Part shown: positions 2,201-63,469 of the stretch, piece after piece | Numbering within the stretch: the first letter of the stretch is position 1 | How the letters are laid out: every line of letters begins with the position of its first letter | Assembly: GCA_963675495.1 (NCBI GenBank) | Contig: OY776215.1 | Span: 416,001 to 480,000, forward strand | Origin: an uncultured Methanolobus sp. | GTDB taxonomy: Archaea; Halobacteriota; Methanosarcinia; Methanosarcinales; Methanosarcinaceae | DNA length: 64,000 nucleotides | Direction: 5' to 3' | Translations under genes and position numbers: made by a program | Notes under the pieces: generated by a model | What the model was told of the DNA's origin: nothing | The model's database searches: none | Seen by the model: the letters and a program-made list of their open reading frames with translations, nothing else

Positions 2201-5188
2201 ATGGATTTTGCCGGGAAATTAAGAACTATTACTATAGGTTTTATCCTATTGCTCGTATCGTCCTCTTTTTTAGTGAGTGCAGCAACTGCCACCACCATAT
2301 ATGTAGATGATAGCGGTGGCCAGGATCATACCACCATCCAGGCAGCTATCAACGCATCCAATTCAAGCGATACTATCCTTGTGTATCCAGGCACGTACAA
2401 TGAGAACGTGGATGTGAACAAAGAGCTGAATATCACTTCAATAGCTGGTGCTGATGCGACGAATGTCGTGGCTCCATTAGCTGATGACCACACATTCTAT
2501 GTTACTGCAGATAATGTTACCATCAGCGGATTCAATGTGAGCAATGCCACAGGTAACAGTAGGGCAGGTATCCGTCTGCATCATTCCAGTAACATCACGC
2601 TGACAAACAACAAGGCCATAGGAAACAGTTACGGTATCTGGTTTTACTATTCCAGCTATAGTACAGCAACCAATAACAATGCTTCGGACAATACCTGGGG
2701 AATAGCACTTTCCTCTTCCAGTAACAATAACACTATAAGCAACAACATCGCATTGAGAAACGCCCAATACGGTATCTTTTTGCAATCTGACTGTAACTAC
2801 AACATGGTTACCAATAACACAGCCTCGGACAACAACTTCGGAATATATATACGTACTTCCAACAACAATAACACAATTGCAAGTAATACTGCACTAGATA
2901 ACAACTACGGGATTCGCCTAGACTCTTCCTGCAACTACAACACGCTGATAAACAACACAGCATCGTCCAATAGATATCACGGGATTTTTCTGTATGTATC
3001 GTGCAACTATAACGCTCTTACCAGTAACCTGGCCTCTGAAAATAGAAATCAAGGAATCGTACTGTACTCTTCCAGCAATAATAACACAGTAACAAACAAT
3101 AATGCATCAGACAATGTCATGAATGGAATCTTCATTGGTTCTACAAGCAACAACAACACGGTCATAAACAACAAAGCATCTGGCAATTCAGACAGTGGAA
3201 TATACATTGATGCATCCAGTGGCAACAACCTGAACAGCAACATCGTTTTGAGCAACTCCAACTACGGAATCTGGCTGTATTCTTCCAGCAACAATCTCAT
3301 CTATAACAATCATTTCAACAACAGCGCCAATACTTACTTCACAGGAACAAATACCGGCAATGTCTGGAACATCACAAGGACAGCAGGTACGAACATAATC
3401 GGTGGTTCCTGGTTAGGAGGAAACTACTGGCTCAAACCGGATGGCAGCGGGTTCAGCCAGGTAAATGATACCGATGCCAACGGTGACGCCATATGTGACG
3501 AAGTCTATACCACCGGTAATTTCACAGATTATCTACCACTGGCATTACCGGATACTACCGCACCCACCGTTACAGATGTCACATCAACTACGGGTAACGG
3601 ATCGTACAATACAGGTGATGGAATCGAGATCACAGTTACCTTCAATGAGAATGTGATTGTCACAGGTACACCACAGATCACACTTGAAACAGGTAGCATT
3701 GACAGAGTAGTGGATTACTCCACAGGCAATGGTACTGCAACTCTGGTCTTTACATATACTGTCCAGTCAGGTGACACATCATCAGATCTGGATTACAAGG
3801 GCACAACTGCATTGTCACTCAATGGTGGTGGCATCAAGGACATTTCAAATAACAATGCCAACCTGATACTGGCAACACCCGGTTCAGAACATTCACTGGG
3901 AGCAAACAAGGCTTTGGTGATCGACACCACAGCACCTGCCAGGGTGACCGATCTTGCAGGATCCTTCAATGGTTCCACCTGGATAAACTGGACATGGATC
4001 AATCCTTCTGACGGGGACTTCAATCATACAATGATATATCTGGATGGTGAATTCAAGAACAACGTAACAGGTACTGCATACAATTCAAGCGGACTGAGCG
4101 ACAACACAGATCATGAGCTCCAGGTCAGGACCGTGGATACTGCAGGAAATATCAATTACACATGGGTCAATGATAGTGCAAGTACGTCGAATACCCTGCC
4201 ACCTGCAAGTGTGACCGGACTATCGGACTCCTCAACCAGTACCACCTCGATCACATGGACATGGACCAACCCCGCAGATGTAGATTTCAATCACAGCATA
4301 ATCTATCTGAACAACGAATTCTTGATCAATGTAACAAATAGTTCGTACATTGTAACCGGTCTGAATGACAATACGTATTATGAATTACAAATCAGGACTG
4401 TGGACACAGCAGGGAATATAAATTCAACATGGGTAAATGACACTGCTGTGACAGATTCTATTGAGGACGATGATGACGACGACGATTCGGGAATCCGTGT
4501 GTCAGTTGGCCAGAGCCTTCCTCCTGAGTTCGTTATATCAACAGATTCCTCAATAAAGAGAGTTCTTGCAGGTTCAAAGATCGAATATGAATTCCCGGAT
4601 GAAGAAGGACCTGTTTTTGGCATCATTTTTGACGCAAAGAGCGATGAAGGTAATGTGGTTGCAAATGTCCAGCTACTCAAGCATTTACCAGATGATGTTA
4701 ACATCAATCCTTCAGGCAGCATCCAATTCCAGACAATGAGTATCAACGTTGGAAGCGAAGGGACGATCTCAAGTGAGAATGCTGACAATATCCAGATCCG
4801 GTTCAGGGTCACTAAGGAATGGATCCTGGAGAACAATATAGATCCTAACACAATTCGTATGACAAGATACAATGACCTTGTGTGGAGCGATCTCCCAACC
4901 AAAAAGATTGGGGAGGATGAGGAGTTCATGCATTTCACTGCCCAGACACCAGGTTTCTCCATCTTCCAGGTTCAAGGGGATGGTTCTGTAAAAGAAATGG
5001 AGAATACTAATGAAAATGCTTCAGAGTCCATCGAGGAAGAAACAACTGAAGCAGATATTGAAGAAGACGCCAACCTGCCAGGATTCACATCCCTATTTAG
5101 CATCTGCATACTTGGAATGGCAGGCTTCCTATTCAGAAGGAGAAAAGAAAGATGTTGGGTCCGGTCCCTGGGACCGGATCTACTCTAA
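2201..5188 (+). CDS. Surface glycoprotein: NosD/CASH right-handed beta-helix, Ig-like and FN3-like domains, PGF-pre-PGF domain, PGF-CTERM anchor
   Basis: Signal peptide after ATG 2201; 'TIYVDDSGGQDHTTIQAAIN'; many Asn-rich 'N..GI.L.SS.NN' repeats; 'GGNYW'; two 'WTW.NP.D.DFNH' repeats; 'TPGFSIF'; C-terminal LPGF + TM helix + RRRK. Confidence 0.88.
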   Translation: MDFAGKLRTITIGFILLLVSSSFLVSAATATTIYVDDSGGQDHTTIQAAINASNSSDTILVYPGTYNENVDVNKELNITSIAGADATNVVAPLADDHTFYVTADNVTISGFNVSNATGNSRAGIRLHHSSNITLTNNKAIGNSYGIWFYYSSYSTATNNNASDNTWGIALSSSSNNNTISNNIALRNAQYGIFLQSDCNYNMVTNNTASDNNFGIYIRTSNNNNTIASNTALDNNYGIRLDSSCNYNTLINNTASSNRYHGIFLYVSCNYNALTSNLASENRNQGIVLYSSSNNNTVTNNNASDNVMNGIFIGSTSNNNTVINNKASGNSDSGIYIDASSGNNLNSNIVLSNSNYGIWLYSSSNNLIYNNHFNNSANTYFTGTNTGNVWNITRTAGTNIIGGSWLGGNYWLKPDGSGFSQVNDTDANGDAICDEVYTTGNFTDYLPLALPDTTAPTVTDVTSTTGNGSYNTGDGIEITVTFNENVIVTGTPQITLETGSIDRVVDYSTGNGTATLVFTYTVQSGDTSSDLDYKGTTALSLNGGGIKDISNNNANLILATPGSEHSLGANKALVIDTTAPARVTDLAGSFNGSTWINWTWINPSDGDFNHTMIYLDGEFKNNVTGTAYNSSGLSDNTDHELQVRTVDTAGNINYTWVNDSASTSNTLPPASVTGLSDSSTSTTSITWTWTNPADVDFNHSIIYLNNEFLINVTNSSYIVTGLNDNTYYELQIRTVDTAGNINSTWVNDTAVTDSIEDDDDDDDSGIRVSVGQSLPPEFVISTDSSIKRVLAGSKIEYEFPDEEGPVFGIIFDAKSDEGNVVANVQLLKHLPDDVNINPSGSIQFQTMSINVGSEGTISSENADNIQIRFRVTKEWILENNIDPNTIRMTRYNDLVWSDLPTKKIGEDEEFMHFTAQTPGFSIFQVQGDGSVKEMENTNENASESIEEETTEADIEEDANLPGFTSLFSICILGMAGFLFRRRKERCWVRSLGPDLL
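5160..5178. terminator. GC-rich hairpin between convergent genes
   Basis: TCCGGTCC-CTG-GGACCGGA perfect inverted repeat. Confidence 0.5.
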
Positions 5189-8280: not shown

Positions 8281-8790
8281 ATGAATGACAAGGATCATTA
8301 CTCCAGTGACGACGACTCGCATGATAAGATCACAAGTATTGATGAACTGATAGAGCACATCATGAAATTGTTCTCCGCCAGTCTCGATGAAAATAATAGT
8401 AAGCCTGTGATACATGGTTTTACAATAATCGACCAGCCAGGGAAAAAACCAACGATATTTGGCTTTAAGGGTCAAACCGGGGCTGAAAACTTCGACTACG
8501 AAGATGAAGATGAGAGCGAAGGGGATTTCTACATATTTAACCAGGAACCTTTCATAGATATCTTTGAAGCAGAAAATAAAGTATTCCTGCTAGCAGACCT
8601 CGGAGTTGAGGAAGATTGCGTTGAATATCACGCTTATGAATCTCATGTGGAACTAAGTGTCATTACCAGCGGCACAGGTTATTCCAGGGTCATAGACCTG
8701 CCCTGCAATGTAGATCCGGCAAGCATGGCTGTATGCTACAAGAACGGCGTACTTGAACTCACGTTTGAAAATGCCGCTGATACAGAATAA
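8281..8790 (+). CDS. Archaeal Hsp20/alpha-crystallin-like protein
   Basis: 'EPFIDIFE...VFLLADLGVE...IDLPCNVD...YKNGVLEL'. Confidence 0.8.
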   Translation: MNDKDHYSSDDDSHDKITSIDELIEHIMKLFSASLDENNSKPVIHGFTIIDQPGKKPTIFGFKGQTGAENFDYEDEDESEGDFYIFNQEPFIDIFEAENKVFLLADLGVEEDCVEYHAYESHVELSVITSGTGYSRVIDLPCNVDPASMAVCYKNGVLELTFENAADTE

Positions 8791-16277: not shown

Positions 16278-18623
16278 TTGTCAAGAAATACCTCAAAACA
16301 TACAGATCTCACAGAAGAAGAAAAAGAACTGATCAAACTTATAGAATCCCGGTTCTCTGGAAGCACTTATCACCTGAATTTCCTCAGTGTTCTGAAAAAG
16401 AGCAGCTCATTATATCATGGTGAACTTCTCAGAACTGCCCGTATGTTGCTTGATAAAGACCAGATGCTTGCAGAAGTTTTCTTTAAGAACTTTCCAGATG
16501 CAGCAGAGAATACCGAGCCTGAAGAGATAAGAAAATGGGTCGGTATAGGAATAAAGATATTTGCTCAGGATAAGGATCTGGCAATTGACTATTTTTCCTA
16601 TTCATCTCCACTCTTAAAGGATCTGGATGTCAGCGAACTGGAAGAGTGGGCTCTGAATGGAATATGTGTCTTTGAAGAGAATCCATCCCTTGGAAGAAAC
16701 TATTTTTCCCTGAGATCTAAAGACTCAAAGGATTTCATTGAAGGACTTATCGGGTCTGCAGCACTCAGTGAGATCGTAAACATCCTCAGGTACTATGCAC
16801 TTGGATTGTCAGGTGTCAATTTTAACATCCTTTCCCGAAGGATGTTGCAGACAGAGGAAGAAAACAATACTATAAATCCTGTGATCGGAGGCAAGACAAT
16901 TTACCTTGCACCCAAAATCAATAAATGCGCAGATTTTGAAGATAACTTCAAGATATACAAACTGAGCATAATGCATGAAGTTGGTCATGCAAAGTTCAGT
17001 TCTCACAAAATAAAACTCGAGGAAGCAGCAGGACTGATGGCAGATATCAGAAGAAGATACACGACCATAAAGAAAAGAACATCTCTGTCAGGAATGCAAC
17101 CTGAGGGTATCCTTGATATCGCTGATGTCATAGCTCTGTTTCCCAACAAAGTACTGGCAGGAACAATACTCGGTGTTCTGGAAGATGCAAGGGTCGAATA
17201 CAGGATAATAGATAACTACAAAGGTGTTCGTTCGGACCTTGAGAGAATAAGATACCAAATGCTTCTGACAAGATCTGCCCCAAAAGGTAAACTTGAGGAG
17301 TTCATGGAATCACTGTTATGGGTCTCGACAGGACATGAACCTGTTTACAATATCGGAAAGGCGACAAAGAGTCTTCTGGACCAGGCAAGTACTCTGCTAA
17401 ATGATGTTATATTTCAGGAAAGTTCATCTATCCTTGATTCCCTTGATACGACCTTCAGGATATACACCGTGCTTGATGAAAAGCTGGGTCCGTTGAGTCA
17501 AACAGAGTACGAGGTACTGAAAAATCTCGATTACCGTGGAGTGAGTATCGAAGTATATGCCATGAAGGACCCTCTTTCTTCCAGATCGCATGAGGATCTT
17601 ATCAAGAATTTCATTCCCGTAACTGAAGTGGAACTGATAGCAGAGGATGAAAGTCCAAAAGAAGAAAAGGCAAAACTTCAGTCAACCTATGCTACGACCA
17701 AGAACTGGAAGATACTTGGCAGTTACATGTATAACGAATGGGATGCCATGATCAATGACTACAAAGCGGACTGGTGTACGGTCAACGAAGTTGAGCCTTT
17801 TGGCATGTCCAGTGATTACTACAAGAATGCATCAGAACAGTACAGGAACGAGATAGCCCGGATCAAGCAAGTATTCAACAGGATGAAGCCGGAAACATTC
17901 CGCAGGATGAAGGAACAGACTGACGGAACTGAGATTGATATCGATGCCTTCATCGATGCCCTGATACAGAAAAGATGCGGGATAAATCCTGATGAAGGAC
18001 TCTACCTCAGATGGGACAAACATGAAAGAGATGTAGCAACTCTTTTCCTCCTGGATGTCAGTTATTCCACGCATAAAATGGTGAACTATGAGGGAAAGAG
18101 CATACTTGATGTCGAAAAAGACTCACTGATCATTATGACACATGCCCTTGAAAGCATAGGTGACAAGTATGCCATCTATGCATTTTCCGGCCAGTCCAGA
18201 GATGACGTTGAGTACTTTGTCATAAAGGAATTCGATGAGGAACTATCGGAAAACGTTGCACGAAGGATAAGTCTGCTGGAACCGGTATCCAACACAAGGC
18301 TGGGACCTGCCATCCGCCATTCGATCAGGAAACTTGACAAGGTAGATGCAAAAACAAAGATACTGGTACTGCTCTCTGATGGTGAACCCTTTGATACCTC
18401 CCGGGGAGAAAGCGCATACAAAGAAAGGATTGCTGAAGAAGATACAAGAATAGCGATAGGAGAAGGGAATTCCAGAGGAATACATTTCTTCTGCATAACC
18501 GTGGATTCTATTCCCGGTAAATATCTTGATAATATTTTCTCAGGTGTAGGATACACGATAATAGATGATGCCAGTTCCCTTCCGGAAACTCTTCCGGGCT
18601 TGTACAAGAGGATAACTACCTGA
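16278..18623 (+). CDS. NorD/CbbO-type von Willebrand A domain protein
   Basis: 'HEVGH', 'LEDARVE', 'YNEWD..INDYKADWCTVNE', 'DGTEIDIDA', MIDAS 'LLDVSYST', 'TRLGPAIRH', 'LLSDGEPFD'. Confidence 0.88.
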   Translation: MSRNTSKHTDLTEEEKELIKLIESRFSGSTYHLNFLSVLKKSSSLYHGELLRTARMLLDKDQMLAEVFFKNFPDAAENTEPEEIRKWVGIGIKIFAQDKDLAIDYFSYSSPLLKDLDVSELEEWALNGICVFEENPSLGRNYFSLRSKDSKDFIEGLIGSAALSEIVNILRYYALGLSGVNFNILSRRMLQTEEENNTINPVIGGKTIYLAPKINKCADFEDNFKIYKLSIMHEVGHAKFSSHKIKLEEAAGLMADIRRRYTTIKKRTSLSGMQPEGILDIADVIALFPNKVLAGTILGVLEDARVEYRIIDNYKGVRSDLERIRYQMLLTRSAPKGKLEEFMESLLWVSTGHEPVYNIGKATKSLLDQASTLLNDVIFQESSSILDSLDTTFRIYTVLDEKLGPLSQTEYEVLKNLDYRGVSIEVYAMKDPLSSRSHEDLIKNFIPVTEVELIAEDESPKEEKAKLQSTYATTKNWKILGSYMYNEWDAMINDYKADWCTVNEVEPFGMSSDYYKNASEQYRNEIARIKQVFNRMKPETFRRMKEQTDGTEIDIDAFIDALIQKRCGINPDEGLYLRWDKHERDVATLFLLDVSYSTHKMVNYEGKSILDVEKDSLIIMTHALESIGDKYAIYAFSGQSRDDVEYFVIKEFDEELSENVARRISLLEPVSNTRLGPAIRHSIRKLDKVDAKTKILVLLSDGEPFDTSRGESAYKERIAEEDTRIAIGEGNSRGIHFFCITVDSIPGKYLDNIFSGVGYTIIDDASSLPETLPGLYKRITT

Positions 18624-18963
18624 TTCTTCAGTATACTGGTGCAGTGTTATCTATTAAAACATTACTAATTATTACAATAATAGTTCAAAAACATTTTTGA
18701 CTTGGGTTTTTCAGTTTCGTTTGATGATATTCCTGTAAACTCACCATAATGCTTACGTGACATCAAAGAACCCATTTTATTGCCACCGGAAGGATTGATC
18801 AAAGCGAACAATTTAATAACAGCCGTGTTGTTTTTTATTTCATTAACGTTCATAAGCTTCCTTCCATATTATGCTAAAATACTGCGATAAGGTAAACGTT
18901 ATAACTGAAAATACCATAAGCATTAGAACACGATTTTGACAAGAACAATAAGAGGAATACACA

Positions 18964-19542
18964 ATGTCAGAAAAGAACCTATTAGGTACCAAGATACGCC
19001 AGATACGTGAAATGCAGAAAATGTCTGTGGAAGAGCTGGCAGACAGTAGCAATACAAACAGTGAACTCATCGAACAACTTGAAAATGGCGCTCTTGTTCC
19101 TTCATTAACTCCCCTTATGCAGATCGCAAGGGCTCTTGGCGTTCGTCTGGGCACTTTCCTTGATGATGCTCCCCATAACGAACCTGTGCTTACCAAAAGT
19201 GGTGCTTCAAAAAATATTGTTAAGTTCTCCGGTAACTGCGACACATGTGAAAAAAGCACACTCGACTTCTTTTCACTTGCCAGTGACAAGGCTGACAGAC
19301 ATATGGAACCATTTATGATCGATGTTCATCCTCCTGGAACAGGAAAAGCAAAACAATCTTCACATGAAGGGGAAGAGTTCATTTATGTACTCAGTGGTCA
19401 GATAGAGATCCTTTATGGCAAGAATAGCTTCAAACTCTCAAGCGGCGACAGCATCTATTACGATTCCATAGTTCCTCACCATGTCCATGCAATTGGCAGT
19501 GAAGATGCAAAGATACTTGCAGTAGTATACGCTCCTTACTAA
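18964..19542 (+). CDS. XRE-family HTH + cupin transcriptional regulator
   Basis: N-terminal HTH; cupin '[14 protein letters not shown]...[12 protein letters not shown]'. Confidence 0.92.
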
Positions 19543-60335: not shown

Positions 60336-61718
60336 TTAGACCCTCTTTCTCAAAGATAAAAATACTGCACCAATTACGCATGCAATTGCGAGCAAAGACT
60401 CAAATCCTGGCAGACTTGAACTTTTCGAACCCGTTCCCTTAGTTCCGAGTTGGGACTGGACCTCGGCATTGATTCTCACCTGTTCTGCCATTTCTTCAAG
60501 TTCAGCTTCGTCCTTGAGCATCTCATAGAAACCATGCCACTGTACAAAATCAGGACCCATCATAAATGCACCCATTCTTGCACGTCTGCCCTCATGATGC
60601 CAGTATTCATAGATCTTGAATTCTATGGGCTCATCAAAGTTCTGCTCGGTCAGTAAGCCATCTTCTCTGAGCTCATCAACTATTAATTTTGAATCTGTGT
60701 ATTTTTGGTTGTATAATGCAACCGTATTGTCTGCATTTACGTAGTAATTTGTGATCCAGTCATCTGAGTGACACTGTGCACACACTGAATACATCCTCTC
60801 CCGCTTTTCCTGCCATGTAGACCCATCACTGATCGGAGTTCCAAATACGTTTGCCGTGTTGTCAGTCCGTCTGGATATCGGTGGTTCAAGTTCCCATGAA
60901 AGACGTGAACTTACATCGTGCGTAGGTTCCAGCTCATCCGTCCCTGACATATGACATACAGTACAGGTAGGCGTCCTATAATCCTCTCCAGCTACCCACT
61001 GCTCAGAACTCCAGTTCCATTGATCTCCTTCAGTATTATAGATGCTTCCGTGCTTTGATTCAAAGAATATCTCTGTCTGAGGATGATCAGGTCCAAGATG
61101 GCATTGTTCACAGGACTCTGGTTTTCGTGCTTCCTCCACAGAGAATAAATGACGTGTGTGGCATGAGGAACACGATCCAAGACTGCCATCCGGATTTATT
61201 CTTCCAATTCCATTGTTTGGCCAGACACTAGGATCATCTGTATTCTTACCGGTCATATTAGTACCATGGCATGCCTGACAACCATTAACCGTAGCATCAT
61301 GATTTACAATGGTCTCACCATCAAACGTTGTTGTGCTTTCAAGATATGGCAGACCTTTATTGTCAAAATCCAGTTCGTAGTATTTGGCACCAAGCGCGTG
61401 CAGACTCCGGGTATTCTCTTCGAACGCTGCAGCATGGCAGGACCCACAGTCGCTTGAAGACACCACAGGTGAAATATAAGTACCCATATGCTCTACAGCA
61501 TCAGAATCATCTGGCTCTGCAATGTGGCAATCTCCACATGATACATCATTCTCTGCATGTTTGCTATTCTCCCAATCATCCACTATCGCCGGAAATACGT
61601 TCATAGAACTATGGCAATCCAGACAGCTATCCAAATCATCCTCTAATGCTGCACCCGATTGAACTAACAAAGCAAAAAGTACGATCAGTGTCCACGTTAA
61701 TAAGTATGCGACCTTCAT
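60336..61718 (-). CDS. Octaheme cytochrome c of the hydroxylamine oxidoreductase (HAO) family with PGF-CTERM anchor
   Basis: GGGGTGG RBS and signal peptide at ATG 61718; eight CxxCH motifs (CLDCH, CGDCH, CGSCH, CQACH, CSSCH, CEQCH, CTVCH, CAQCH); 'RHLFSVEEARKP', 'GPDHPQTEI..SKHG', 'HHEGRRARMGA..GPDFVQWHG'; LPGF + TM helix + RKRV. Confidence 0.92.
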   Translation of the reverse strand: MKVAYLLTWTLIVLFALLVQSGAALEDDLDSCLDCHSSMNVFPAIVDDWENSKHAENDVSCGDCHIAEPDDSDAVEHMGTYISPVVSSSDCGSCHAAAFEENTRSLHALGAKYYELDFDNKGLPYLESTTTFDGETIVNHDATVNGCQACHGTNMTGKNTDDPSVWPNNGIGRINPDGSLGSCSSCHTRHLFSVEEARKPESCEQCHLGPDHPQTEIFFESKHGSIYNTEGDQWNWSSEQWVAGEDYRTPTCTVCHMSGTDELEPTHDVSSRLSWELEPPISRRTDNTANVFGTPISDGSTWQEKRERMYSVCAQCHSDDWITNYYVNADNTVALYNQKYTDSKLIVDELREDGLLTEQNFDEPIEFKIYEYWHHEGRRARMGAFMMGPDFVQWHGFYEMLKDEAELEEMAEQVRINAEVQSQLGTKGTGSKSSSLPGFESLLAIACVIGAVFLSLRKRV

Positions 61719-61849
61719 GTTCCACCCCATGTGTATAATGCTTCTGTAAAAATGATACGATAGATCCCCTATAAAATAATAGACAGAGCTTTGATAAAAA
61801 GCTGTGGTGAGGTGGAAGAACAACACAGCAATTATCCAAGAAACAAAAT

Positions 61850-62172
61850 CAGCATCAGAAAAGATAATTGTAAATGGTGGGCCCGATGTGTTTCGCAACT
61901 CCGATGACGCTTCGGAAGCGCGAATCGAGGTGCATCGCTACGCTCAGCACCGCAATAATAACAAAAAAACAACTAAGCTCCTTACATAAACCAGCATCAG
62001 AAAAGATAATTGTAAATGGTGGGCCCGATGTGTTTCGCAACTCCGATGACGCTTCGGAAGCGCGAATCGAGGTGCATCGCTACGCTCAGCACCGCAATAA
62101 TAACAAAAGAACAACTAAGCTCCTTACATAAACCAGCATCAGAAAAGATAATTGTAAATGGTGGGCCCGATG
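61850..62172. repeat. tRNA-linked tandem repeat: two 142-bp units plus a 39-bp third copy overlapping the tRNA 3' end
   Basis: Units start at 61850, 61992 and 62134; the full units differ at one base (61967 A / 62109 G); each contains TGGTGGGCCCGATG, the reverse complement of the tRNA-Val 3' end including CCA. Confidence 0.97.
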
Positions 62173-62235
62173 AGATTCGAACTCATGATCCTCGCCGTGT
62201 AAAGGCGATGTCATAACCAGCTAGACCACGGGCCC
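62159..62235 (-). tRNA. tRNA-Val (anticodon TAC), CCA encoded
   Basis: GGGCCCGTGGTCTAGCTGGTTATGACATCGCC-TTTACAC-GGCGAGGATCATGAG-TTCGAAT-CTCATCGGGCCCACCA folds as a cloverleaf. Confidence 0.97.
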
Positions 62236-62304
62236 ACAGTGTTTGCGAATAAAGTTGTTCGGTGACGGTTTCGCCCACGAGCAACTCCTTAATGTAACTA
62301 GTTG

Positions 62305-62320
62305 TATATAACCTTTTTTG
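62305..62320 (-). promoter_or_regulatory. BRE/TATA promoter of tRNA-Val
   Basis: Minus strand CAAAAAAGG-TTATATA about 70 nt upstream of the mature tRNA. Confidence 0.6.
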
Positions 62321-62412
62321 ATGGAAACTTGGAAATTGGATGAAAATCTTAATTTCTCACTGTTTTTTACTTCCATCTGACAGTATTTCAAATTGAAATT
62401 GGATTAAATAAT

Positions 62413-62715
62413 TTAAACCATATAGTCCACAACAACCCTGTCATCATTGATCTTGCCGACAAATTCGGCAACCTTCATGTGCTCAGGGTGGTCCTGATAA
62501 ATCTTAAATGCTTCCTCATCTTTAAACTCGGAATAGAGAACAACATCATAAGCAACAGCTGAAGGATTTTCATTAATTCCCACCTCTATCACTTCAATCT
62601 CAGGGATCATACTTTTGAGAGTTTCAAGCATTTCCTTCATAAGCAATGCATTCCCAATGTTGCTCTTTCCTTCAGCATTTTCCTTTAACTTCCACATAGC
62701 AATATGTTTAAACAT
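62413..62715 (-). CDS. Dabb-family stress-responsive A/B barrel protein
   Basis: 'MFKHIAMWKLKE...IPEI...YDVVLYSEF...YQDHPEH...VVDY'. Confidence 0.88.
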   Translation of the reverse strand: MFKHIAMWKLKENAEGKSNIGNALLMKEMLETLKSMIPEIEVIEVGINENPSAVAYDVVLYSEFKDEEAFKIYQDHPEHMKVAEFVGKINDDRVVVDYMV

Positions 62716-62845
62716 GTGATATTCCTCTTTTCTGCAAATGCTGACATGTCTTATGTCTTTTATGTTCAAACATGCAAGAATACGATATCCTGAAAAAATA
62801 GTGCTGATAGGTATTTAAATACTAACAAAGTGAAATAGGGCAATA

Positions 62846-63469
62846 ATGCCTTACGATTCAAGTGATGAAAACGAGGACTACGAGATAGAAGTCGTCGAGG
62901 AGTACATAGGGGATTACGGAAGTATCCACTCCATAGTGCGTGAGGCGTTACCATTTGAACTCATGGCAACCATTGGAGGAGTAATCTCAGGATTAATTCT
63001 CTCAGGAATGAGCAACGAACTGGAACTCATACCAGGATTAATTGTCATCACACCCGCTGTACTTGGCATGCGAGGGAATATATCCTGCACATTAGGCTCC
63101 CGTCTTGGAAGTGCCATACACATGGGTCTTATCACAAAGATAGACCGCAATCCCGAACTTATAAACAATGTTTCAGGGTCCCTCTTATTGAGTCTGATGA
63201 TGTCTTTTATACTTGGAATCGTGGGCCATCTGATAACCGTGGGCCTTGGCCTGCAAAGTGCAGGAGCATTCACCCTTACATTGATCGCTGTCATAGCAGG
63301 AGTATCCTCAGGACTCATTCTTGCATTCGTTGCGGTCCTGCTTGCTCTTGGTATGTTCCGCTTCGGATTCGATCCTGATAATGTAGTCACTCCTGCCATT
63401 GCCACTATTGGTGACATCGTATCCATGGTAATGCTCTTTCTGGCTGCAAAGGTGGTGCTTATGATATGA
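62846..63469 (+). CDS. MgtE integral-membrane-domain divalent cation transporter
   Basis: 'GMRGNI...GSRLGSAIHMG', 'FDPDNVVTP...GD'. Confidence 0.88.
   Translation: MPYDSSDENEDYEIEVVEEYIGDYGSIHSIVREALPFELMATIGGVISGLILSGMSNELELIPGLIVITPAVLGMRGNISCTLGSRLGSAIHMGLITKIDRNPELINNVSGSLLLSLMMSFILGIVGHLITVGLGLQSAGAFTLTLIAVIAGVSSGLILAFVAVLLALGMFRFGFDPDNVVTPAIATIGDIVSMVMLFLAAKVVLMI

Follow-up and report, generated by a model that had tools for sequence, protein, structure and literature searches.

In the genome of an uncultured Methanolobus sp. (assembly GCA_963675495.1), a tRNA-Val gene is followed by a tandem array whose units each carry a copy of the tRNA 3' end. What does such an array represent: a scar left by integrating elements, an accident of assembly or slippage, or a module with a role of its own? 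The window analyzed here is the whole stretch of 64,000 nt (contig OY776215.1, positions 416,001 to 480,000), and coordinates refer to it unless another locus or genome is named.

Organization and copy number of the array

The only tRNA called in the window by ARAGORN was tRNA-Val(tac), on the minus strand (62159-62235; Rfam RF00005, 67.1 bits). Behind it, Tandem Repeats Finder delimited an array at 61846-62184 with a period of 142 bp, 2.4 copies and 97% matches, and both programs, as well as the sequence itself, bore out the order tRNA-R-S-R-S-R given in a first-pass annotation of this DNA. The tRNA closes with the 14 nt CATCGGGCCCACCA, and further copies of this stretch lie at 62017-62030 and 61875-61888, followed each time by the same 25 nt, and each 103-bp S is bordered by this 39-bp repeat (14 nt of tRNA plus 25 nt). 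In the direction of transcription, the tRNA is followed by a 56-nt T-rich trailer, an 86-nt GC-rich block ending in CATCGGGCCCACCA, a second trailer, a second block and 25 nt of trailer. The two full units (62017-62158 and 61875-62016) differ only by C at 62109 versus T at 61967 (minus strand), the one-base difference reported initially. Hereafter, the structured core S fused to R, the copy of the tRNA end, is named the S-R module; H1 and H2 denote the two hairpins of its core, and int(N) and int(C) the two parts of the split integrases described below. The features of the array are as follows.

62159-62235, minus strand: tRNA-Val(UAC) gene with encoded CCA (ARAGORN; Rfam, 67.1 bits); the first R is formed by its 3'-terminal 14 nt (62159-62172)
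62103-62158, minus strand: trailer t1, 56 nt, T-rich; its opposite strand resembles the 3' coding end of int(N)
62017-62102, minus strand: S-R module, copy 1 (covariance model R1, 99.8 bits, E 1.4e-26)
62069-62095 (H1), 62040-62061 (H2), pseudo T-loop with an extra G, and 62017-62030 (R), minus strand: parts of copy 1, from structure and covariation
61961-62016, minus strand: trailer t2, equal to t1 save for T instead of C at 61967, which produces a run of seven T
61875-61960, minus strand: S-R module, copy 2, with H1 at 61927-61953, H2 at 61898-61919 and R at 61875-61888 (model R1, 99.8 bits)
61846-61874, minus strand: start of a third trailer and distal edge of the array; 25 nt equal to t1 and t2, then divergence (BLAST, 97% over 29 nt)

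A second unit could in principle be a mis-assembled duplicate, and no short-read contig crossed the array whole: those from two runs of one sample (X1 and X3) ended at the repeat, as expected. However, the depth of the 39-bp junction node was approximately 2.2-2.4 times that of its flanks in both runs (119 vs. 51-58 and 320 vs. 132-136), the two units differ by one base, and arrays of two to three units are found independently behind other tRNAs and in further genomes, so that an assembly artefact is highly improbable. The depth ratio supports the presence of several copies, while their exact number rests on the assembly, since no contig spans the array. The expansion had been described as recent, which holds for the array at tRNA-Val but not for the module, an old element that different genera have conserved.

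The longest ORF call for a multiheme cytochrome encoded downstream (several CxxCH motifs; 60336-61898, minus strand) starts at a TTG inside the array and runs through part of a repeat unit (MRNTSGPPFTIIF...). The true start is likely the ATG ahead of a signal-peptide-like MKVAYLLTWTLIVLFALL.

Distribution of the module and linkage to tRNA genes

When the same genome was searched with one unit, tRNA-Ile(gat) was found to be followed by one copy (87% identity) and tRNA-Pro(ggg) by three tandem S-R copies with a 98-bp period, each closing on the 3' end of its own tRNA. The proposal that S might follow other tRNAs with their own 3' ends was therefore borne out, here for Ile(GAU) and Pro(GGG), and S was also detected behind an intron-containing tRNA in another family; a one-off slippage, for which S would occur nowhere else, does not describe these data. 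Among the 50 tRNA genes of the genome, a tail repeated downstream was restricted to Val(tac), Ile(gat) and Pro(ggg), besides two ordinary tandem tRNA duplicates. A covariance model (R1) built from 29 S-R copies yielded seven strong matches in this genome, all behind Val(tac), Ile(gat), Pro(ggg) or Val(cac), the copy at the latter having been recovered by profile search in a decayed form without R. The tRNA-Ile(gat) gene (G000:C1:2627776-2627852) and tRNA-Val(tac) share an identical 28-nt 3' stretch (T-arm, acceptor strand and CCA), so that both genes can be served by one and the same attachment site or module.

Beyond this genome, the 86-nt block matched 30 of the 177 genomes of the family by BLAST (19 of 35 in genus g1, 5 of 13 in g8 and 3 of 11 in g13). 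In a sample of 151 genomes drawn from the order, the covariance model matched 22, which represent 8 of the 23 genera and 3 of the 6 families. The fetched loci contained 61 distinct model matches, a tally in which a few places fetched twice are perhaps counted twice: 40 were preceded by a full, co-oriented tRNA gene at a distance of no more than 500 nt (Val-tac 16, Pro-ggg 11, Ile-gat 9, Val-cac 2, intron tRNA 2), seven lay behind a tRNA 3' fragment, 12 showed no tRNA signal and two were cut by contig ends. The tRNA gene is located 11-83 nt upstream of the module, on the same strand. Within the genus, the distribution is patchy, with approximately 20 of 35 genomes carrying S-R. Five search-negative genomes of the genus included one empty Pro site, three internally deleted remnants (G062, G088, G090) and one case of unrelated DNA behind tRNA-Pro (G084), and R was degraded in G059 and G082. 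This patchiness, together with the deleted or absent modules at some loci, indicates that S-R is dispensable.

An Rfam scan of 61000-63000 with E values up to 10 reported the true tRNA alone, with no other family near threshold, and a scan of five distant loci likewise gave no Rfam family for the module. Members of RF00005 have a cloverleaf with a paired acceptor stem and score above 29 bits; ARAGORN called no tRNA in the repeat units, and S, lacking a 5' acceptor strand, is not a tRNA. Literature searches, which covered the full text of articles, retrieved no mention of an S-R-like module; neither was one found in the consulted portions of the literature on archaeal integrases and tRNA-site elements (PMC7253208, PMC8371274).

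R as a copy of the neighboring tRNA

R duplicates 14-24 nt from the 3' end of the tRNA gene upstream and agrees with it at 19-22 of 24 positions in most loci. Four species-specific acceptor variants of tRNA-Pro are mirrored in the adjacent R (GCGATCCC, GCAGTCCC, GCGGTCCC and ACAGTCCC). Where the tRNA gene lacks CCA and ends in ACTA, ACTT or ATCA, R ends in the identical flank bases, and in many loci, not all, the similarity continues into the trailer. The regeneration of the CCA end, by which the units were initially described, is thus incidental, since R tracks the tRNA of each species, even for genes without CCA. Because flank bases are copied and the similarity enters the trailer, R is a duplicate at the DNA level kept in step with the gene.

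R is absent from the Val(CAC) copy of the genome studied and from a subfamily behind Val tRNAs in genus g8; the existence of a subfamily without R suggests that the tail is inessential to the role of the core. In the g8 copies, a second H2-like hairpin stands where the tRNA-end copy would be. The gapped mimic of the T-arm noted at first proved to be real and general, with an extra G in the T-loop copy of the Val, Ile and Pro types. From the loop of H2 onwards, the module resembles the part of a tRNA that begins at the variable loop and runs to its 3' end, and S-R is plausibly tRNA-derived.

Structure and covariation of the core

The core consists of approximately 57-65 nt and comprises a long H1, a short linker and H2, with a stem of 5-6 bp and a near-invariant 7-nt loop (AGCGUCA). 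Of the two hairpins proposed originally, the GGTGC...GCACC stem was upheld as H1, which covaries in relatives and reaches about 10-12 pairs in many copies. The CGCTTC-C-GAAGCG palindrome was not: its bases are invariant and the pairing is broken in Pro-type and Val(cac) copies, and RNAalifold combined with explicit pair counting on the 29-copy alignment identified TTCCGA-AGCGTCA-TCGGAG as the conserved H2 instead. Over 26 pairs, 82.4% of the cells were paired, vs. 34-41% when partners were slid by 1-3 columns. Cells changed on both sides numbered 46, against a shuffle mean of 22.5, a value reached by none of 500 shuffles, while pairs showing any double change (7) were no more numerous than in shuffles (421 of 500 reached this number). 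Covariation was observed in H1 (GC15/AU11, CG13/UA7, GC22/AU4) as well as in H2 (CG22/UA6, AU14/CG12), and the outer extension of helix 2 was weakly supported. Moreover, distant copies combine a recognizable H2 with H1 stems of wholly other sequence (GTCCG/CGGAC; ACGTATCCCC/GGGGATACGT). The family thus displays both a conserved fold and compensatory changes, the features by which a structured non-coding RNA is recognized.

Wobble pairs pointed to one strand. G.U exceeded A.C by about 34:12 in the well-supported helices (hand tally) and by 136:64 over the whole structure in 59 distinct copies, whose alignment, being fitted to the model, leans toward a G.U excess on the sense strand; one G.U is invariant on the tRNA-sense strand. 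This excess favors folding of the tRNA-sense strand. In single-sequence folding, the Val units were unremarkable (z -0.8 and -0.95), and the Pro units gave z values of -3.5 and -2.7. A K-turn or C/D-box in H1 was considered and rejected, as tandem G.A occurs in only 15 of 29 copies and Watson-Crick pairs take its place in others.

Several copies depart from this layout. The H2 hairpin is locally duplicated in loci L026 (G092) and L031 (G036), with AGAAGCGT.ATCTGG present twice. A distant S-like copy (34.7 bits) at 485-570 of locus L067, from another family of the order (G272), has a different H1 stem, an H2 of the form TCCAGA-AGGGTAA-TCTGGA and a second H1-like hairpin just upstream, and lies inside an apparent ORF-less group II intron (GUGCG near 62; domain V/VI Rfam match at 868-942). 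A link between S and group II introns was discarded: only this one distant copy lies in intron-like RNA, and the introns of locus L040, from the same genus as the window, lack S. The latter (genome G082) are two identical group II introns (2477-4603 and 16987-19113; Rfam D1-D4 and D5-D6, equal scores), the first with a reverse transcriptase ORF; they lie in or near the elements integrated at tRNA-Val and adjoin a DDE transposase and a 1024-aa lectin/PKD protein.

Conservation of the core and coding alternatives

At orthologous tRNA-Pro loci from eight species of the genus, identity was 0.91 for the core (H1 to H2), 0.58 for the trailer, 0.65 for the 90 nt upstream and 0.51 for the following 60 nt. 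Among 11 Val-type copies, the corresponding values were 0.84 for the core, 0.64 for the trailer and 0.55 for the following 60 nt. The contrast between core (0.84-0.91) and flanks (0.51-0.65) argues that the core is under selection, and its being better kept than the trailer of its own unit argues against both a neutral scar and whole-unit spreading alone. The Val and Ile cores of the genome studied were 0.95 identical, which equals the highest value among Val copies (0.74-0.95, mean 0.84).

Coding potential did not account for this pattern. Antisense coding of an integrase linker was rejected, since compensatory changes alter two residues in the only frame that is often open, and stops occur in Pro-type copies and in the window. 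Homologues of the S peptide amounted to just two proteins in a set of 5.8 billion sequences, and the stronger match (E 2.8e-25) was an integrase ORF in which the peptide precedes the integrase domain and whose start was most likely set too far upstream. A small sense-strand ORF through S is open in several copies, with residues unconserved by eye, and homology of S to int(N) coding DNA was dismissed as well (short shared words only; the core HMM misses int(N) genes).

The integrase ORFs P0002 and L040 8969-10204 (373 and 411 aa) extend upstream, antisense, through the tRNA half, the trailer and S-R. Such over-long antisense ORFs occur in three of the five copies next to int(C), and a 141-nt spacing leaves the frame open in several genomes; the extension through S-R is probably an over-extension. 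The module is an annotation hazard, ORF callers having stretched both an integrase and the cytochrome ORF of the window through the module.

Integrase elements at the tRNA-Val site

The 3' region of tRNA-Val had been expected to act as an integrase attachment site, and split integrases were indeed found there in relatives. In four genomes (G082, G081, G068 and G086), 4-51 kb lie between the full tRNA-Val(tac) and one or two tRNA 3' halves of 47 nt, which start in the anticodon loop. An int(C) ORF with the archaeal phage integrase domain PF16795 (E 1e-38 and 2e-39) lies in frame to the left of each half, and an ORF of 114-221 aa, int(N), reads into the full tRNA from its right. This layout is that of the SSV-type 'suicidal' integrases of archaea, as set out in the consulted portions of Badel et al. 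2020 (PMC7253208) and of a review (PMC8371274); in its consulted portion, the former data set includes five mesophilic Methanosarcinales integrases. S-R sits beyond the distal tRNA half, which is chromosomal flank in the SSV-type model. In G085, a 5.5-kb insert at tRNA-Val starts with int(N) and ends with S-R, without int(C), and int(N) relics follow S-R itself at five junctions in four genomes (G085, G068 twice, G094 and G030). The G085 insert (L039, 8789-12891) encodes a nucleotidyl transferase, a class I/II aminotransferase, a CDP-alcohol phosphatidyltransferase and an ATP-grasp-like protein, and a truncated S lies at 8571-8637.

On the opposite strand, Val and Ile trailers resemble the last ~20 codons of int(N) (..KEQLSSLHKPASEKIIVNGGPDE.. 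vs. ..LEKQLSLLQESISVKRDFIGGPDE..), with a tblastn match (E 1.9e-9) that is inflated by the tRNA-coded part. Because of this resemblance, the Val/Ile trailer is probably a relic of int(N). In two genera, the trailers of most Val/Ile units measure 53-58 nt (one measures 37 nt); those of Pro-type units measure 11-27 nt, and Pro-type loci contain no integrase relics within 1.5 kb. As regards the hallmarks of an attachment site, the window does contain a direct repeat of the tRNA 3' end flanking DNA, and in place of the pair int(N) and int(C) it holds only the int(N)-like relic of ~20 codons, with no int(C). By comparison, int(N) reading into the tRNA and int(C) at the distal repeat were both found in the four genomes with split tRNA-Val. 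The sole trace of an SSV-type integrase in the genome of the window is a 108-aa fragment (G000:C1:2081980-2082246; PF16795 positions 69-158), which lies 1.6 Mb away, far from all four S-R loci.

A dedicated integrase with a core in one half of S (L033) was not retained; as its int(C) is truncated and carries stops, this junction is better read as a deletion. Two further S copies are broken at H2. A casposon or MITE origin was rejected too: such insertions show terminal inverted repeats within a target-site duplication, according to the consulted part of PMC4779613, and by eye the unit ends (TATTCTAC.../...GGGTTGC; TTTACAAT.../...GCGAAACA) form no inverted repeats.

Origin and possible role of the module

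Taken together, these data give good support to the view that the array arose by local tandem amplification and that its module belongs to a conserved family linked to tRNA genes in Methanosarcinales. As to its role, we favor a putative tRNA-derived structured trailer RNA, amplified by unequal recombination, to which we assign a probability of roughly 0.45. This reading offers the best fit because of the covariation, the conservation of the core above that of its own unit, the strand bias of wobble pairs and the strict co-orientation with the tRNA. The module would be transcribed together with its tRNA and may be released as a structured trailer RNA, that is, a 3' external transcribed spacer RNA, in which H1 and H2 would form the folded body and R a mostly unpaired 3' tail. 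Exchange between neighboring repeats at the DNA level would keep R identical to the tRNA 3' end, and the R repeats would also drive unequal recombination, through which arrays may grow (two Val, three Pro and one Ile copies in the genome studied) and contract. At Val and Ile loci, the module would lie in an integration hot spot of split SSV-type integrases, with the spacer as a putative relic of the int(N) end. Some observations count against a trailer RNA. The thermodynamic signal of the Val type is weak; R with bases past the mature tRNA end (ACTT, ACTA) is a signature of att sites or duplication rather than a requirement of an RNA; the T-runs between tRNA and S in Val units could terminate transcription before S; and the module is patchy and dispensable, includes a subfamily without R and has a poorly supported outer helix 2.

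The main rival, which we hold to be possible if rather doubtful, takes the unit (trailer, S and R) as the joined ends of a cargo-less, tRNA-targeting integrative element, the trailer being its int(N)-side end, S a structured arm by the core and R the core. SSV-type integrases would mobilize and multiply such units in trans, and S-R would act as an extra attachment site. The elements of 4-51 kb in four relatives, with int(C) abutting the 47-nt half, agree with it, and so do the insert of G085 at the same site, which has kept int(N) and is bounded by int(N) and S-R, and the int(N) relics behind S-R. The near-constant length of Val/Ile trailers, the 0.95 identity of the Val and Ile cores and the uptake by R of flank bases beyond the tRNA point the same way, as does H2, which is nearly invariant and whose geometry, an inverted repeat around 7 bp, is that of a tyrosine-recombinase core site. 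However, no free copy of S was encountered: an exact degenerate pattern of S gave 0 matches on viral contigs, and blastn with the S unit gave none on PLSDB plasmids or INPHARED phages. The short Pro-type trailers without Int relics nearby speak against this model, and S is conserved in place while its own trailer is not (0.91 vs. 0.58), a pattern from which whole-unit spread would differ. Within the genus, S and the integrase domain were unassociated (both in 11 genomes, S only in 9, integrase only in 10, neither in 5), and the genome studied retains just the distant integrase fragment. Unequal homologous exchange between R copies could also yield the order S-R then int(N). The att-only mini-element mobilized in trans was one of the two explanations first put forward; the other, a cassette yielding RNA, would fit the selection and covariation data better, and we infer a trailer RNA in preference to an att role of the DNA on these grounds.

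A functionless origin, either as a decaying pseudo-tRNA or as an old attR remnant duplicated by slippage, would explain the patchy distribution and the decaying copies (the three deleted remnants, the two degraded R and the degraded Val(CAC) copy of the genome studied), and unequal crossing-over expands any R-x-R arrangement. We regard it as improbable, given that the core is kept across species beside adjacent non-coding DNA that is not, that two helices show compensatory changes, that distant copies retain the H1 hairpin despite unrelated sequence, and that H1 of the Pro type is conserved by subtype, which rules out simple homogenization among types. About as improbable is the idea that S-R is a dedicated, host-maintained RNA in which a single-stranded copy of the tRNA 3' end, borne on a two-hairpin scaffold, would tune or sense integrating elements. 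SSV-type integrase genes carry the reverse complement of the tRNA segment in frame, so that the tail might be antisense to the att-core stretch of every integrase mRNA aimed at that tRNA or, alternatively, might act as a decoy of proteins by which the tRNA end is read; concerted evolution with the tRNA gene would keep the specificity of such a system up to date.

Comparison with known systems and implications

Scars of SSV-type suicidal integrases, as described in the consulted portion of PMC7253208, share with the array the direct repeat of the tRNA 3' end, the same tRNA-Val site in relatives and a trailer similar to the 3' end of int(N). They differ, as far as the consulted portions of PMC7253208 and PMC8371274 go, in that the S-R unit has a covarying two-hairpin core outside any integrase gene. 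Furthermore, S-R is conserved in place without integrase relics, and in genomes without intact integrases, unlike such scars.

The repeats downstream of tyrT in Escherichia coli (rtT region) contain the 3' end of tRNA-Tyr and are likewise tandem repeats right behind a tRNA gene, each with a tRNA 3'-end copy. Unlike S-R, they are bacterial and confined to one locus, and we know of no conserved module common to different tRNAs in that system. The 3'ETS of E. coli leuZ is a functional tRNA trailer that acts as a sponge of sRNAs by base pairing; like the putative S-R RNA, it is a co-transcribed trailer freed by 3' processing with a function of its own, yet it pairs with sRNAs and is not known to carry a copy of a tRNA end. 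Arrays of integron attC sites are made of short units ending in a structured site whose fold is conserved above its sequence, and ORF-less cassettes exist among them. S-R arrays are also short units ending in a structured site; in contrast, they have no integron integrase or attI, their H2 is nearly invariant and each unit is anchored to a tRNA 3' end.

Repeats of tRNA 3' ends are usually taken as integration scars and ignored, and in this case the 'scar' holds a conserved, covarying and selected core, shared by five or more different tRNA genes and by eight or more genera, and absent from Rfam. If the module acts as RNA, it would constitute a new archaeal family of functional tRNA trailers with a self-updating tail. 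If it acts as a DNA site, it would be a structured secondary landing pad or a non-autonomous partner of suicidal integrases, and would bear on the persistence and target switching of integrases that destroy themselves. Either way, the array offers a deletable locus for the study of the interplay among tRNA gene, trailer and integrating elements in methanogens.
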